Shown: one piece after another, positions 2,950-63,162 of the stretch
Layout: each line of letters starts with the position of its first letter
Numbering within the stretch: position 1 is the first letter of the stretch
Assembly: GCA_038062875.1 (NCBI GenBank)
Contig: JBBTWF010000001.1
Location: 27,769-91,768, forward strand
Origin: Patescibacteria group bacterium
GTDB taxonomy: Bacteria; Patescibacteriota; Minisyncoccia; UBA6257; UBA9933
Length of the DNA stretch: 64,000 nt
Reading direction: 5' to 3'
Made by a program: the position numbers and the translations under genes
The notes under the pieces: generated by a model
Database searches by the model: none
What the model was told of the DNA's origin: nothing
The model's input: only the letters and a program-made list of their open reading frames with translations

Positions 2950-2950
2950 T

Positions 2951-3139
2951 ATGAAGAAAAACGAAATCAAACAATTGAAAAACAAACCCCTGCCAGAACT
3001 TCAGAAAAATTTAGCCGATTTTCAAGAGAAATTAAGAAAGATGAAATTTGATTTGGCGGCCGGCAAAGTAAAGAATATCAGAGAAATTAAGGCGATTAAA
3101 AAGGCGATTGCGAGGATTTTAACTACAATAAATATATGA
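2951..3139 (+). CDS. rpmC: 50S ribosomal protein L29
   Basis: 62 aa helical protein in the L29 position ([34 protein letters not shown]). Confidence 0.85.
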
Positions 3140-3366
3140 AACACAAATTACAAGGAATTATAGTTTCCGATAAAATGAATAAGACGAGAGTCGTTGCAGT
3201 CGAACGGCTTAAAAAACATCCGAGATACTTAAAGTATTATAAAATAACTCGGAGATTTAAGGCGCACGACGAGAATAATGAATACAAAACCGGAGATAAG
3301 GTTGTTATTGAAGAAACAAGGCCGTTAAGCAAAGAGAAAAGGTGGAGAATAATTGGAAGAATTTAG
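3136..3366 (+). CDS. rpsQ: 30S ribosomal protein S17
   Basis: 76 aa, [32 protein letters not shown]..., an S17 OB fold; overlaps the rpmC stop. Confidence 0.9.
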
Positions 3367-3434
3367 GGGATAGAATATAGAATTTAGGGACTAAAAATCC
3401 TAAATCCTAAATCCTAAATCCTAAATCCTAAATT
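3367..3434. repeat. Intergenic element of opposed heptamer tandem repeats: (TAGAATA/TAGAATT)n on the left facing (CCTAAAT)x5 on the right, able to fold as a long imperfect hairpin
   Basis: Sequence agaatatagaatttagggactaaaaatcctaaatcctaaatcctaaatcctaaatcctaaat read directly; the left arm is approximately the reverse complement of the right arm. Confidence 0.8.
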
Positions 3435-20084: not shown

Positions 20085-20130
20085 AGGCGCTCTAACGCAT
20101 TAGAGCGCTCTAACCGGTTAGAGCGCTTGA
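20085..20130. promoter_or_regulatory. Compound palindrome GCGCTCTAAC-GC-ATTAGAGCGCTCTAA-CC-GGTTAGAGCGC: three overlapping inverted copies of a 10-mer, a candidate operator or attenuator
   Basis: Read directly; the central TTAGAGCGCTCTAA is itself palindromic. It sits 65 bp upstream of the Cys-rich ORF. Confidence 0.5.
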
Positions 20131-38169: not shown

Positions 38170-39210
38170 ATGTTCATAGGGATTATCGCGGTTATAATTT
38201 TTTTATCAATTTTAATTTTAGTCCATGAACTTGGGCATTTTTTGGCTGCCAAGAAATTCGGTTTATTGGTTGAAGAATTCGGTTTTGGTTTGCCGCCGCG
38301 AATTTGGGGCAAGAAAATAGGGGAGACAATTTATAGCGTTAATGCTTTGCCTATCGGGGGCTTTGTTAAAATTTTTGGCGAAGATGGAGAAGATGCGACC
38401 CTAAAAACCCGAATTTCGGGTCGCATAGAAAGAAGTTTCACAAGTTTAAAAATCTGGCAAAGGGCGCTCATTCTTTTAGCCGGCGTCTTTATGAATTTTT
38501 TGCTCGGTTGGCTGGTGATTTCAGTTGTTTTTTTCATCGGTATTCCTCAAACGATTTTAATTACCGAAGTGGCTCCTAATAGTCCGGCGTCTGAAATCGG
38601 TTTAATGTCAGGCGACAGAATAGCTAATTTTTCCAAAATGGATGAATTTATCGGATATGTTAATGATAATAGAGGTAAAGTGATTAATTTAGAGATTGAA
38701 CGTTTAGATAAGTCGTTTAGCGTTCAAGCAACGCCAAGAATAAATCCACCCGAAGGGCAGGGCGCTTTAGGCATTTCTTTGGCTGAAGGCGGTTCGCCGA
38801 AAATGGGCGTTTTTGAGGGATTTTATGAGGGATTGAAAACCTCGGCGGAAATCGTTAAAAGTATTTTCTTGGCTTTATTCGGTTTGATTAAGTCGGCTTT
38901 TGTTGGCAAGGGGAGTTTGGAATCAGTGGCAGGCCCGGTTGGAATCGTAAAAATTACCGCTCAAGCCGGCAGTTTGGGATTTGTTTATTTGCTTCAGTTG
39001 TTAGCTTTGATTTCTTTGAATTTAGCCGTAATAAATATAATTCCTTTTCCGGCTTTGGACGGCGGTCGTTTGCTATTTTTGTTTATTGAGAAAATCAAGG
39101 GCTCGCCACTTAATCCTAAATTTGAAAAATTCTCCAATGCCGCGGGAATGGTTTTGCTGTTGCTTTTAATGCTGTTGATTACAATAAAAGATATCTCAAG
39201 ATTTTTCTGA
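38170..39210 (+). CDS. rseP: Site-2 protease, M50 family (RseP-like), with a PDZ domain
   Basis: HELGHFLAAKKFG (HExxH) in TM1, PDZ (GLMSGDRI), and a second metal-ligand region near LDGGRL. Confidence 0.8.
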   Translation: MFIGIIAVIIFLSILILVHELGHFLAAKKFGLLVEEFGFGLPPRIWGKKIGETIYSVNALPIGGFVKIFGEDGEDATLKTRISGRIERSFTSLKIWQRALILLAGVFMNFLLGWLVISVVFFIGIPQTILITEVAPNSPASEIGLMSGDRIANFSKMDEFIGYVNDNRGKVINLEIERLDKSFSVQATPRINPPEGQGALGISLAEGGSPKMGVFEGFYEGLKTSAEIVKSIFLALFGLIKSAFVGKGSLESVAGPVGIVKITAQAGSLGFVYLLQLLALISLNLAVINIIPFPALDGGRLLFLFIEKIKGSPLNPKFEKFSNAAGMVLLLLLMLLITIKDISRFF

Positions 39211-39214
39211 ATTC

Positions 39215-39356
39215 CTCGCGAGCAATTCATCAAGAAAACACGCTATCTCCGACCCCAGCGTGGTCGGAGCGCTTGCTCTCGGCCTCACTCTCCTCGCTGT
39301 GCTCGGAACCATGCCCGTTCGGCCTGCGAGACAGTTTTCTTGATGAATTGCCCGCG
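39215..39356. ncRNA. GC-rich 140-nt extended hairpin with a 23-bp outer stem and nested inner hairpins; a candidate structured RNA
   Basis: Outer stem CGCGAGCAATTCATCAAGAAAAC/GTTTTCTTGATGAATTGCCCGCG (22/23 bp pairs); inner stem CTCCGACC/GGTCGGAG. It starts 5 bp after the rseP stop. Confidence 0.4.
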
Positions 39357-39430
39357 GTAGAATACAAACAACACTTGAGATTTTTATACATTATTCAGAA
39401 CAGGCAGGCAGAGCAAAATAGATAAAGACA

Positions 39431-39604
39431 GCCAGAAAATCTTTTTAGAGTGAGTATCGCGGAGCCGAAGAGAAAATCTCTGAGCGAATAGGAAATTTGT
39501 CGGGCACCCCCGACGAAGGGAGGCAGGGTGGCAAATTTTCGTATATGAGCGAAGTTAGATTTTCCTTCGGCGGAGCGCACGAACGAAGAAAGATTTTCTG
39601 GACT
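39431..39604. ncRNA. Candidate structured RNA of about 175 nt, closed by a 13-bp stem CCAGAAAATCTTT/AAAGATTTTCTGG with nested hairpins
   Basis: Nested inverted repeats read directly (gtcggg/cccgac; gagaaaatct/agattttc); GC-rich against the flanks. Confidence 0.35.
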
Positions 39605-39943
39605 ATAAACGACTTTCGGGAATTTCACATTTTAATTATTTTTTAATTATCAAAAACGTCATTATAACGGCGTTTTTTGATGTATTGACAAATAAAGCAA
39701 AGTATGCTATTATTTTAGCAGAAAATTAAGATGCAAGGATAAATTTTTAACCGCATTTTCGGCCCACCATAAGGACGAAAGAATTTATTTTATATAATTT
39801 TCATTTCGTCCTCCTACCCGAAATCGGGAAACAAAATTTCGCGGCTTCGGACAAGAGAAAAAAGTTCTTTGAAAAATTAAAATGGAAATTCTTGCCTTTG
39901 GCGAGGGATTAAACGTTTATAGAAGTAAAAAAGAAGGGAGAAT

Positions 39944-40207
39944 ATGATGGAAAAAATAGGAATTGGAATTCTCGTAATAATTATTTTGGCAATGGTGATA
40001 CTGGTCAATATGTTTTTAGGGATTCTGTTGTTGGATTACACGTCGTCGATTATTGGCATGCCTATCCAAAATTCTATCAGTAATCTTTTTCTGGTGGGAA
40101 TTTTATGGGTTTTCATGACGGCGTTTGCTGGCGCCGTGTGTTACCTTATCGGTGATGTTGTTTTAAAAGTGGCAAATTTTTTGAAATTAAGGGGAGTAAT
40201 AAAGTAA
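39944..40207 (+). CDS. Small hypothetical membrane protein (2 TM segments)
   Basis: 87-aa hydrophobic ORF with an RBS-like AAGGGAG upstream. Confidence 0.3.
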   Translation: MMEKIGIGILVIIILAMVILVNMFLGILLLDYTSSIIGMPIQNSISNLFLVGILWVFMTAFAGAVCYLIGDVVLKVANFLKLRGVIK

Positions 40208-40318
40208 GTAAATTTAGTAAATTTTCAGAGAGGCCTGCGCGAGTTTTCCGCATTGCCTCTCTTTTTATTTGTTTTTTTATGTTTTGACTTAAAAATGTTT
40301 TTTGATTAAGATAAAGAT

Positions 40319-41551
40319 ATGCGTCAATCAACTCTTTTTACTAAAACTCGTAGAGAAGCGCCGAAAGACGAAGAAGCAGTCAACGCCAAACTGCTTATTC
40401 GAGCTGGTTTTGTTGATAAACTAATGGCAGGGGTCTATACTTTTTTGCCTTTGGGTTTTCGAGTGCTTAAAAAAATTGAGAATATTGTAAGAGAGGAAAT
40501 TAACAAAGCGGACGGAGTGGAAATTCTGATGCCAACGCTTCAGCCAAAAGAAAATTGGCAGAAAACTGGACGCTGGGACACGATGGACGATTTATACAAA
40601 GTTAAAGATAAAAGCGAAAAAGAATTCGCTTTGGGTCCTACGCACGAAGAAGTTATTTTTCCTTTATTAAAAAAATATATTTTTTCTTACAAAGACCTGC
40701 CGCTTTATATTTATCAAATACAGAATAAATTCAGAATGGAATTAAGAGCGAAATCCGGACTTTTGCGCGGAAGAGAATTTTTAATGAAAGACCTTTATTC
40801 GTTTCATACCAATGAAGAAGACAGAGATAAGTATTACGATAAAATCATAGAGGTCTATAAAACAATTTTTGACAAAGTCGGCATAGGCGAAAAAACATAT
40901 TTTACGCTCGCGCCGGGAGGGACTTTTTCCAGACATTCCCATGAATTTCAGACGATTACGGAAGCCGGCGAAGACATAATCCATATCTGCGAGGCCTGTA
41001 AGATTGCAATTAATGACGAAATAATAAAAGAACAAAAATCTTGTCCGAAATGCGGAAAAAATAAATTTCAAAAAGAAAAATCCGTTGAGACGGGGAATAT
41101 TTTTAAATTAAAAGATAAATTCGCGGAGGATTTTGATTTAAAATTCAGAGACAAAGACGGATCGGAAAAATTTGTTTCAACTGGATGCTACGGGTTAGGA
41201 TTCGGACGTTTGATTGGAGTTGTCGTAGAAGTAAATCATGATGATAAAGGAATAATCTGGCCGGAATCAATCGCGCCGTTTCAAGTTCATTTGTTAGATA
41301 TAAGAGGAAAGGGGCAAGAGGAAAGAGGAAAGAAAATTTACGAAACTTTACAGAAAAATGGAGTTGAAGTATTGTATGATGACAGAAATGATGCCAGCGC
41401 GGGCGAAAAATTCGCTGACGCGGATTTAATCGGTATTCCGTACAGAGCCGTAATCAGCGAAAAAACCGGGGATAAAATTGAAATAAAAAAGAGGAGCGGT
41501 AAAGAAATTAAATTAGTTAGCGAGAAAGAGTTAATTAAATCTCTGATATGA
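40319..41551 (+). CDS. proS: Prolyl-tRNA synthetase, short form without the editing insertion, with an inserted Cys4 zinc ribbon
   Basis: Class II motifs (FRMELRAKSGLLRGREFLMKD, GCYGLGFGRLIGVV); C-terminal anticodon-binding domain; ribbon CEACK...CPKCGKN. Confidence 0.85.
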   Translation: MRQSTLFTKTRREAPKDEEAVNAKLLIRAGFVDKLMAGVYTFLPLGFRVLKKIENIVREEINKADGVEILMPTLQPKENWQKTGRWDTMDDLYKVKDKSEKEFALGPTHEEVIFPLLKKYIFSYKDLPLYIYQIQNKFRMELRAKSGLLRGREFLMKDLYSFHTNEEDRDKYYDKIIEVYKTIFDKVGIGEKTYFTLAPGGTFSRHSHEFQTITEAGEDIIHICEACKIAINDEIIKEQKSCPKCGKNKFQKEKSVETGNIFKLKDKFAEDFDLKFRDKDGSEKFVSTGCYGLGFGRLIGVVVEVNHDDKGIIWPESIAPFQVHLLDIRGKGQEERGKKIYETLQKNGVEVLYDDRNDASAGEKFADADLIGIPYRAVISEKTGDKIEIKKRSGKEIKLVSEKELIKSLI

Positions 41552-53149: not shown

Positions 53150-53184
53150 CATTTATAAGTGAATTATATTATAATAGCAATAAT

Positions 53185-53385
53185 AGATGAGTATCAGTAA
53201 TCCTTAACGATGATATCGATTGAGGATTGCCCACAATTTGTTTGGCCGAGCACATAATATTTATGTGCTCGGTTTTGTTTTTACTGGATTTTTTGTATAC
53301 TTAAATTGGAGCCGCGGGACGAGCACTCATCTATTACAAACAGAATTGGAGGTCACCGCTCGCGGCTCCACGAGTTTGTATTTTC
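53185..53385. ncRNA. Candidate structured RNA or leader upstream of murB: long-range pairing AATAGATGAGTAT/GCACTCATCTATT enclosing two hairpins
   Basis: Inner hairpins CCGAGCACATAATATTTATGTGCTCGG+T-run and GGAGCCGCG...CGCGGCTCC; the GC-rich ORF 53220-53420 in the track is probably spurious. Confidence 0.35.
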
Positions 53386-54381: not shown

Positions 54382-54645
54382 GGAAAATTTTTATTTTTAA
54401 TGAAATTAAAGTTATCCACAGTTTACATTTAATCTAATTGTTCTAAAATTAATATAAAGATTGAAAAATTATTTTTTAAATTATCAATCTTTTAGTAAAG
54501 TTATATAATCTAATACGGTTGAATGGTCGGCAATCGTGTTAAATTTAAAAATTCTTAATTAGTCGATATTGAGCTTAACGTGAAATATCGACAATACGCC
54601 ACAATGGCAAAGAAAAAAGCAGGAAAAAAAAAGAAGAAATAAATT

Positions 54646-54706
54646 CTTTCCCCCTCTTTCCCCACTTAATAAAAGCGACAAGAAAGAGGGGTTTTTATTT
54701 TTAATA
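54646..54706 (+). terminator. Hairpin CCCTCTTTC...GAAAGAGGG followed by a T-run, just after a 12-codon lysine-rich mini-ORF (MAKKKAGKKKKK, 54604-54642)
   Basis: Read directly; upstream of hpf. Confidence 0.45.
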
Positions 54707-54727
54707 AAATAAGTTATAATATATAAT

Positions 54728-62799: not shown

Positions 62800-62807
62800 A
62801 CAAAAAA

Positions 62808-63162
62808 CCGGCAAGTCATAAGCCGGATTCTGTTCCGCCAATCGGCGGATAACGATAATTTGTCTGGGCCTTCGATTACTCTAGGGCTCTTGCGGTACTC
62901 TCCGACTTTACGTCGGAGTACGACCTTGCACCCAGTAAGGAATTTAGCCGTTTCACCTCTGCTTTTTTATCCCTATGGCAGAGCTAGACCTTCTACGTTA
63001 GGATCGGGTCTCCCGAACCTTTCGGTTCTAAGGCGTCACTGTTCGCACCTCTAAGATTACTCTCGACGGCTGTTAGCCGCTACAATTACCAACGCTAAGC
63101 GCTGGCTGGGTGTCCGGACTTTCCTCCCCGACTTACGCCGGAGCTATCGTCTGACTTGCCGA
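62808..63162 (-). ncRNA. rnpB: RNase P RNA (bacterial type A-like), minus strand
   Basis: The reverse complement contains GGGGAGGAAAGUCCGGACACCC (CR-I/P4), AGAGGUGAAACGGCU, and ACAGAAUCCGGCUUAUGA (CR-V/P4 3' strand). P1 pairs UCGGCAAGUCAG with UGACUUGCCGG, followed by UUUUUU. The GC-rich region carries only a spurious ORF (62860-63054). Confidence 0.8.

Follow-up and report, generated by a model that had tools for sequence, protein, structure and literature searches.

Non-coding imperfect palindromes located in intergenic regions or 3' untranslated regions (3'UTRs) include the repetitive extragenic palindromes (REP) and bacterial interspersed mosaic elements (BIME), the enterobacterial repetitive intergenic consensus (ERIC) sequences, the Correia elements (CREE) and the Rickettsia palindromic elements. 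The Y and Z REPs of a BIME are paired in inverted orientation. The subject of the present work is a 415-bp non-coding cassette between the genes rseP and proS of a Patescibacteria genome, belonging to the candidate phyla radiation (CPR). It lies in a 64-kb stretch of DNA (37% GC) that was analysed as a whole and is called the window below. The cassette carries two structured modules. Module 2 is a member of a family of long rod-shaped hairpins, named family A, copies of which in other genomes may adjoin a rod of a related family B (B + A units).

Several properties are shared with the REP/BIME type. These are the palindromic, intergenic or 3'UTR character, the presence or absence between relatives, the terminal inverted repeats on the B + A unit, the inverted pairing of A and B, and a probable location within mRNAs. 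There are also clear differences. The rods described here have 170–200 nt, compared with 35–150 nt in the palindromic elements named above, and they occur at approximately one copy per tens of kb instead of hundreds per genome. Neither a target-site duplication nor a cognate transposase or REP-associated tyrosine transposase (RAYT) was identified for them, and both covariation and strand-specific purine loops persist across genomes with only ~60% RseP identity.

Integron attC sites and the end hairpins of IS200/IS605, which serve as recombination substrates through their single-strand structure, resemble the rods in having covarying structure, strand-specific extrahelical bases and no target-site duplication. 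However, the rods are several times longer and have multiple symmetric internal loops. Their ends read AAAATCTTTT...AAAAGATTTT and not RYYYAAC / GTTRRRY as in attC, and no integrase or TnpA is encoded among the neighbouring genes. Bacterial signal recognition particle (SRP) RNA is likewise a rod hairpin, and in one subgroup of family A (group 2) the strings CAGG and AGCA flank the apical helix; the family A locus differs from it in being unstable between close relatives. Finally, an intergenic region that is long and GC-rich although the genome is AT-rich, combined with covariation and the lack of any matching known class, is the signature of the orphan and 3'UTR non-coding RNA motifs of the Breaker laboratory, whose surveys reportedly sought structured non-coding RNA motifs in GC-rich intergenic regions of AT-rich genomes. 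No motif matching family A is present in Rfam 15.

CPR genomes are extremely compact, and almost nothing was found in the literature on their non-coding RNAs. The analysis presented here provides a covariance model (R1) for a new, well-supported structured family that escapes detection by Rfam 15, and a second model (R2) for the related family B. It gives evidence that streamlined genomes, with otherwise little non-coding DNA, contain small cassettes moving from one intergenic site to another, and it resolves the longest spacer of the window into inserted DNA and native gene furniture.

An Insertion Cassette in the rseP–proS Gap

Of the 70 gaps in the window, counted between greedy non-overlapping open reading frames (ORFs) of at least 80 aa, that between rseP and proS (39211–39943, 733 nt) is the longest; the median gap is 9 nt. 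The original prediction for this DNA had drawn attention to the exceptional length of the spacer, to three sets of inverted repeats, and to the lack of any ORF longer than 77 aa. The length was borne out, all the repeats were recovered at the positions given, and the longest ORF has 77 aa. The description of the gap as GC-rich holds for its first ~400 nt (0.44–0.61 in 100-nt windows) and not for the whole (0.41, with an AT-rich 3' third; window 0.37). The tract had also been treated as one object. It is a mosaic of at least two unrelated units, namely the insertion cassette (unit 1, 39211–39625) and, following it, a terminator, a promoter and a conserved RNA, module 3 (unit 2, 39652–39907). 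Folding against dinucleotide shuffles gives z = -5.9 for module 1, -7.4 for the plus strand of module 2 and -2.2 for module 3.

The cassette was recognized by comparison with the closest relative, a Logan contig (L214) in which frr, rseP, proS and mreB are 85–90% identical to the window at the nucleotide level. The rseP–proS site of L214 lacks modules 1 and 2, and R1 matches nothing in this contig; ~45 nt past the rseP stop comes the terminator known from the window, and after it the promoter and module 3. As L214 passes from the rseP stop to the same terminator, the corresponding part of the window represents a 415-bp indel with clean edges, and homology between the two sequences resumes at ~39626. 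The cassette is also absent from the rseP–proS site of two other relatives, with RseP 78–80% identical.

The ends of the cassette can pair over 7 bp (GAATTCC / GGAATTTC). No target-site duplication flanks the window cassette, as judged against the empty site of L214, or the solo A copies; the flanks in contig L140 are ambiguous (TTAAG / TTTAAG). At its right edge the cassette shows some resemblance to the rseP 3' end over ~25 nt, but as a target duplication this was rejected, the similarity being too weak.

The spacer is identical in an independent ENA assembly of the same strain, and hence the gap is not an assembly artefact. The ENA contig (L218, 3713–3744) has extra bases in rseP relative to window ~38869–38882, in the form of a local duplication of ~30–44 nt, and is otherwise 100% identical. 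With this duplication, which may be strain variation or an assembly artefact, RseP is called as a truncated protein of 240 aa. Logan short-read contigs of the same strain from several samples (L081–L089) end at the same coordinates, 39257–39263, where module 1 has the loop of its inner hairpin, and in one sample a contig breaks at 39513, at the apex of module 2. Adjoining Logan contigs overlap by just 7 nt. Possible causes are a drop in coverage at strong hairpins or heterogeneity of the loops.

Module 2 and Family A

Module 2 is closed by two fully complementary 13-nt arms, CCAGAAAATCTTT at 39432–39444 and AAAGATTTTCTGG at 39589–39601. Its plus strand folds at about -72 to -73 kcal/mol, and its minus strand at about -55 to -59 kcal/mol. 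Among 80 rseP loci of GTDB species representatives, only one (L009, RseP 61% identical) has DNA resembling the gap. There, between frr and rseP, module 2 is present in full together with the inner portion of module 1, both on the same strand, and 13 of the 49 pairs of module 2 show compensatory changes between the window and L009. No further A copies are present in the ~620 kb covered by the rseP loci.

A scan of metagenomes with the apex motif returned 109 loci, of which ~90 are chance matches in GC-rich DNA. Fifteen low-GC loci are true homologues, several of them duplicating the same sequence. Three loci (L129, L130, and L152) have the apex motif in unrelated purine-rich sequence and are not homologues. 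The same motif gave 15 matches in viral contigs, all by chance in GC-rich contigs, and nothing similar to the elements was found in plasmid and phage collections. With the window and L009 included, family A comprises 13 distinct copies in Patescibacteria-like contigs.

For the 12 sequences of alignment A5, RNAalifold gives one rod with 50 pairs as the consensus, and 32 of the pairs show double changes. In alignments A5 and A7 (12–13 sequences), 90.4% of the cells are in standard pairs, and this fraction drops to 35–47% when the 3' partners are slid by 1–3 columns. The covariation score is 0.46 vs. ~0.1 after sliding, and none of 500 shuffles reaches the observed value. Paired cells are Watson–Crick in 588 cases, G.U in 22 and A.C in 12. 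The rod structure of family A is kept by compensatory substitutions and is under selection. R1 finds all A copies at 134–173 bits, the window match spanning model positions 1–171. The window sequence itself is part of the R1 seed alignment; L195, which is outside the seed, scores 167.6 bits. E-values of both R1 and R2 are rough, their calibration having been shortened.

The closing helix of family A has 12 bp (AAAATCTTTT / AAAAGATTTT). Internal loops are often symmetric and made of purines, for example GGA/GGA and GA-GC-GAA on both strands, and one loop (GUGAGUA / UACGAAC) has tandem G.A. Overall, 75% of the unpaired positions are purines. The terminal loop of 10–11 nt reads GACGAAGGGA(A), also given as GACGAAGGGAA, and the pair closing the apex (columns 102–125) covaries in group 1, being A-U twice and G-C five times. 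In the five A copies tested, the modelled strand folds 3–17 kcal/mol better than its complement. Given the stronger fold of the modelled strand, its purine loops and its excess of G.U over A.C pairs, the functional form appears to be one specific single strand, plus in the window. Family A is a previously undescribed structured non-coding family. The proposal of a novel small RNA, one of the candidates of the original prediction, is retained in modified form, in that module 2 belongs to this family; comparison of the spacer with relatives, also proposed there, found covariation in module 2 and presence or absence of the cassette at the site.

Twelve A copies have neither neighbours nor orientation in common, and the element is thus not a cis-regulator of one gene class. 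Solo A copies lie beside mraZ, hpf–secA, rplJ, and a tRNA gene, and other copies beside a znu-like ABC transporter gene and ftsW. The 64-kb window has a single A copy, and so does each of the other contigs; no additional copy in the window came from self-BLAST of the spacer or from searches for the repeat arms with mismatches allowed.

In three contigs (L147, L114, and L158) a cluster of two or three DnaA boxes, either TTATCCACA or differing from it by one mismatch, is located directly 3' of A, and in L147 and L114 mraZ lies divergently upstream of the A copy. A link of family A to DnaA boxes or oriC was considered and rejected; three copies abut such clusters and the window copy does not.

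Family B, the B + A Unit and Module 1

R1 gives weaker matches (37–46 bits) on the opposite strand directly adjoining the A copies of L127 and L140, and similar matches in the frr–rseP gap of L012 and the rseP–proS gap of L008. The rods of family B, ~200 nt in length, were found in these four contigs and in L001. The latter is the closest GTDB relative (RseP 79% identical), and its B copy lies in the frr–rseP gap. R2 scores B members at 134–223 bits and cross-matches A copies at 22–49 bits. From the reciprocal cross-matches of the two models (20–49 bits), families A and B are related.

Between L127 and L140 the B + A unit, 470 bp in length and with ~12 nt separating B from A, is 90% identical. 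Terminal inverted repeats of 28 bp (TGTAAGA..AGCCTTGTTTACATT) lie at its two ends. Its flanks are unrelated, ABC transporter genes in L127 and amidohydrolase and ftsW genes in L140, and its orientation relative to the neighbouring genes is opposite in the two. In terms of miniature inverted-repeat transposable elements (MITEs), non-autonomous derivatives of DDE transposons, B + A has terminal inverted repeats, the window cassette has just its 7 bp, and in solo rods the closing helices act in this way; the target-site duplication of MITEs is lacking in the window cassette and solo A copies. Solo B copies begin within ~10 nt of a stop codon, that of frr in L001 and L012 and that of rseP in L008. 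Solo copies as a whole favour such sites, within ~10 nt of stop codons.

Other features of the frr–rseP region in relatives are as follows. rseP is interrupted by, or fused with, a ~150-aa segment carrying PF13366 (L012, 4228–4688; proteins P0007, P0052, and P0108), which suggests an insertion inside rseP in some relatives. The GC-rich frr–rseP gaps of L027, L048, and L047 were examined as distant homologues and rejected. Two of them, from Staskawiczbacteria (L027, 3523–3955; L048, 3532–3982), are strongly folding and apparently encode a small secreted minus-strand protein with a signal-peptide-like N-terminus, MKLFIAFQTSALL..., and not a structured RNA.

A homologue of module 1 lies upstream of family A in L009, and compensatory changes affect 8 of 21 pairs. 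The 23-nt outer arms (39217–39239 / 39334–39356) are 96% complementary in the window, and the outer stem is present in both genomes with different sequence. The loop hairpin, with the loop CCAGCG(T/A), has wholly different stems in the window and L009, and 6 of its 9 pairs are compensatory. The minus strand of module 1 folds at -72.1 kcal/mol compared with -66.9 on the plus strand, 33 of its 44 unpaired bases are purines, and it contains the hairpin CCGAGC-ACA-GCGAGG with tandem G.A pairs. The better folding and purine-rich loops of the minus strand are common to the window and L009, and module 1 is therefore assigned to this strand. It may accordingly function on the minus strand, in which case the purine-loop strands of modules 1 and 2 would point apart.

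Module 1 could be part of a longer rod whose outer arms overlap the last 18 nt of rseP. The 5' end of this putative rod on the minus strand reads AAAAATCTCAAG and can be compared with the AAAATCTTTT ends of families A and B. The extension is doubtful, as repeats of 72–77% arise by chance in this AT-rich DNA. R2 gives no match at E <= 5 to module 1 of either the window or L009, and membership of module 1 in family B is rejected statistically. Module 1 and the B copy of L001 share just the local hairpin CCGAGC-ANA-GCGAGG and the minus-strand 5'-terminal AAAAATCT. The placement of module 1 relative to A is exactly that of B in other genomes.

Possible Nature of the Cassette

The cassette is tentatively interpreted, at a little under even confidence, as a structured element of low copy number that relocates and is active in the form of one single strand, probably of RNA. 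It would be a non-autonomous element, selfish or semi-domesticated. Its active form, most likely RNA, would be transcribed in the window as the 3'UTR of rseP, because the terminator sits downstream. The rod and its purine loops would be read by a trans-acting protein, which may either propagate the element or process or protect the 3' end of the transcript. Relocation is evidenced by the position of the modules in L009, by the presence of B + A at unrelated loci and by the solo B copies after stop codons. A degraded mobile element had been among the candidates of the original prediction. The block of modules 1 and 2 does behave as a mobile or relocating insertion, but it is intact and structurally constrained, not degraded.

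Several observations weigh against this interpretation. There is no target-site duplication and no identifiable transposase, classical MITE or REP families have far more copies, and L214 may simply have deleted the cassette. Conservation of the loops across genomes with RseP ~60% identical fits a host-useful RNA gene equally. The invariance of the terminal loop is partly imposed by the search pattern, and the G.U to A.C ratio is just ~2 to 1. Module 1, for its part, is known from two sequences, fails the B model, and has a strand assigned from folding and loop composition.

A more far-reaching proposal, speculative and unlikely as it stands, is that in CPR bacteria A, B and module 1 make up a new class of mobile structured nucleic acid, either selfish or semi-domesticated. 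The members would be protein-free rods of 170–200 nt, in which the strand-specific fold with symmetric purine loops serves as the relocation substrate. A host or trans-encoded enzyme would relocate them, inserting them behind stop codons without target duplication, and they might then be co-opted as 3'UTR-derived RNAs. If the rods are mobile, they are an unusual structure-dependent non-autonomous element. If they are RNAs with a partner protein, a previously unknown ribonucleoprotein complex is indicated for a major bacterial radiation.

Alternatively, A, B and module 1 may be chromosomal genes for trans-acting protein-binding RNAs, vertically inherited and locally rearranged or lost. This is the foremost of the rival explanations and a possible, if somewhat unlikely, one. 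Such RNAs would be ribonucleoprotein scaffolds, expressed from weak promoters of their own or processed from operon transcripts at the closing helix. The deep covariation and the conserved purine-rich loops agree with this, as do the single copy per contig, the rseP linkage in five genomes (window, L009, L001, L008, and L012) and the TAnAAn-like -10 motifs just upstream of most 5' ends; many copies are divergent or convergent to their neighbours, so that a promoter of their own is needed. Such genes are harder to reconcile with an orthologous site that is empty in a relative of 85–90% nucleotide identity, and with the unrelated loci and the terminal inverted repeats of the B + A unit. Moreover, the ~12 nt between B and A in L127 and L140 leave no room for a promoter. 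Between modules 1 and 2 there is no convincing sigma-70 promoter either, a sigma-70 scan of the 75-nt spacer having found none and inspection by eye only weak matches.

The rods might also be selected in cis at the ends of genes, in the manner of REP or ERIC, as bidirectional terminators or as hairpins for RNase III processing or mRNA stabilization. This is improbable. The proximity of copies to stop codons (~10 nt), the closing helix AAAATCTTTT...AAAAGATTTT with its order of A-tract, stem, and U-tract, and the occurrence of both orientations relative to the operon would all suit such a function, but 170–200 nt with conserved purine loops far exceed what termination needs, and downstream of module 2 the window has a conserved terminator distinct from the rod. 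The strand asymmetry is kept even where the purine-loop strand is antisense to the operon (L001, L008, L012, and L140).

It is very improbable that the whole tract is a cis-acting leader (riboswitch, T-box, or attenuator) for the small ORF downstream and/or proS. The original suggestion of a riboswitch or leader could apply to module 3 alone, which is leader-like, as it follows a strong promoter, precedes the next ORF and is well conserved in L214, whereas modules 1 and 2 lie upstream of the rseP terminator and the promoter that follows it. In addition, the neighbours of family A are unrelated, the small ORF is without homologues and is replaced in L214, proS has its own terminator–promoter pair (40227–40312), and no riboswitch or T-box of Rfam matches.

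Known RNA families were searched with Rfam 15. In the window just RNase P RNA (62804–63162, minus strand) and one tRNA pass; the original prediction had correctly placed the genuine RNase P RNA outside the gap, and the likeness to RNase P CR-I/CR-II that it noted in module 2 finds no support. Its proposed cmscan for 6S, SRP, tmRNA, RNase P, T-box, and riboswitches gave no relevant match to the tract. Nothing relevant appears at E <= 10 in 39100–40350, 39255–39615, L009 3650–4000, or L127 2000–2420, or at E <= 0.5 in the whole window. ARAGORN found no tRNA or transfer-messenger RNA. The window RNase P RNA scores 112.5 bits against a gathering threshold of 100, so that housekeeping RNAs of this lineage are near the detection limits of Rfam.

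Both 6S and SRP RNA were considered for family A and rejected. The consensus of module 2 and A5 has no central bubble as in 6S RNA, its internal loops being at most ~5 x 9 nt, mostly symmetric and purine-rich. An SRP RNA would require helix 8 to end in a GNRA tetraloop and to carry a symmetric loop of the CAGG/AGCA type and an asymmetric one; the tetraloop is lacking, and the pairing register is another one. Group-2 members of family A read CCAGGNCCC...GGGAAGCAGGG, which recalls domain IV of E. coli 4.5S RNA (CAGG ... GGAA ... AGCA). In the window copy GGGCA stands where CAGG is expected, and the covariation of columns 102–125 in group 1 pairs CCC with the distal GGG, abolishing the SRP-like symmetric loop. 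The SRP model finds no match in a 421-nt sub-window around the group-2 copy of L127. A highly divergent SRP (4.5S) or 6S RNA missed by the Rfam models is thus the least probable explanation of all, since the ~170-nt rod, the group-2 likeness and a window free of canonical SRP or 6S matches are set against the lack of any Rfam match at E <= 10, of the tetraloop and of the bubble, the group-1 register, the GGGCA of the window, and the absence of the element from this site in a close relative. Literature searches on CPR SRP RNA, 6S RNA and structured-RNA surveys found nothing relevant, and a term search of PMC11109978, one of the Breaker surveys, found no mention of "Candidate Phyla", Saccharibacteria, or Patescibacteria.

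Native Features and Neighbouring Genes

The coordinates of the features of the gap and of its 3' flank are collected in Table 1. The L214 counterpart of the promoter upstream of module 3 reads TTGACA-17-TATCAT. Module 3 contains 9-nt arms, AGGACGAAA / TTTCGTCCT (39772–39780 / 39804–39812), and CCCGAAATCGGG at 39817–39828. It is 91% identical to L214, compared with 85–90% in the neighbouring genes, and ~95 consecutive identical columns (window ~39771–39863) cover both hairpins. On this comparison, module 3 is a lineage-conserved RNA, predicted to be a leader or a small RNA. It is not demonstrable as a riboswitch, because the two sequences are too similar for covariation and no Rfam family matches.

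Past 39907 the window and L214, the only two genomes in which module 3 was seen, are unrelated, and L214 has ~170 nt without a convincing ORF. This variable segment of the window contains the 87-aa ORF, which is absent from L214, matches no NCBIfam family, and has no homologue other than itself among 5.8 billion proteins.

Table 1. Features of the rseP–proS gap and its 3' flank (window coordinates; R1, covariance model of family A).
Feature	Position	Strand	Description
Non-coding indel cassette	39211–39625	.	415 bp: module 1, spacer, module 2 and 22-nt tail
Possible extended module 1 rod	39193–39381	-	Outer arms 77% complementary over 22 nt
Module 1 core	39217–39356	- (inferred)	23-bp outer stem, loop hairpin, branched domain
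Module 1 loop hairpin	39247–39269		Conserved loop CCAGCGT
Module 1 branched domain	39280–39340
Module 2	39433–39603	+	Family A rod, ~170 nt; R1 155.9 bits, E = 3.5e-30 (rough)
Module 2 terminal loop	39512–39521	+	GACGAAGGGA, closed by CCC(S)C / G(C)-A-GGG, bulged A
rseP terminator-like hairpin and U-run	39652–39678	+	Native, kept in L214 directly after rseP
Sigma-70 promoter	39685–39713	+	TTGACA-17-TATTAT, extended TG; 11/12 consensus positions
Module 3	39720–39907	+	Conserved RNA, ~190 nt; hairpins 39772–39812, 39817–39828
87-aa ORF	39944–40207	+	Hydrophobic stretches; ORFan, in variable segment
Second terminator and proS promoter	40227–40312	+	GAGAGGC...GCCTCTC and Ts; TTGACT-17-TAAGAT; 95% identical in L214

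The order of genes is holB, a gene for a BNR-repeat protein, frr, rseP, the gap, the 87-aa ORF, proS, and mreB, and the local order from holB to mreB is widely kept across the phylum. RseP and ProS match the NCBIfam equivalog models TIGR00054 (259 bits) and TIGR00409 (438 bits), respectively, and Frr was confirmed likewise. The closest RseP relatives are found in Paceibacterota- and Wolfebacteria-like metagenome-assembled genomes.

Other Observations in the Window

An intergenic module at 53181–53336 is closed by a perfect repeat of 12 bp (TAATAGATGAGT / ACTCATCTATTA). It encloses a second perfect 12-bp hairpin (CCGAGCACATAA / TTATGTGCTCGG), after which comes a T-run, and TATAAT is found just upstream. 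Fold z values are -5.2 (plus strand) and -6.0 (minus strand), and the module is a possible small RNA gene. The 346-nt AT-rich gap at 54382–54727 (GC 0.24) has a perfect DnaA box, TTATCCACA, at 54412 and a plus-strand fold z of ~ -4.9 relative to mononucleotide shuffles. It is a candidate replication origin or DnaA-regulated region. A 20-bp palindrome, GCGCTCTAAC...GGTTAGAGCGC, is located at 20087–20127 in a 160-nt gap, and a run of CCTAAAT repeats at 3406–3434 (within 3360–3434) in the 485-nt gap 2950–3434.

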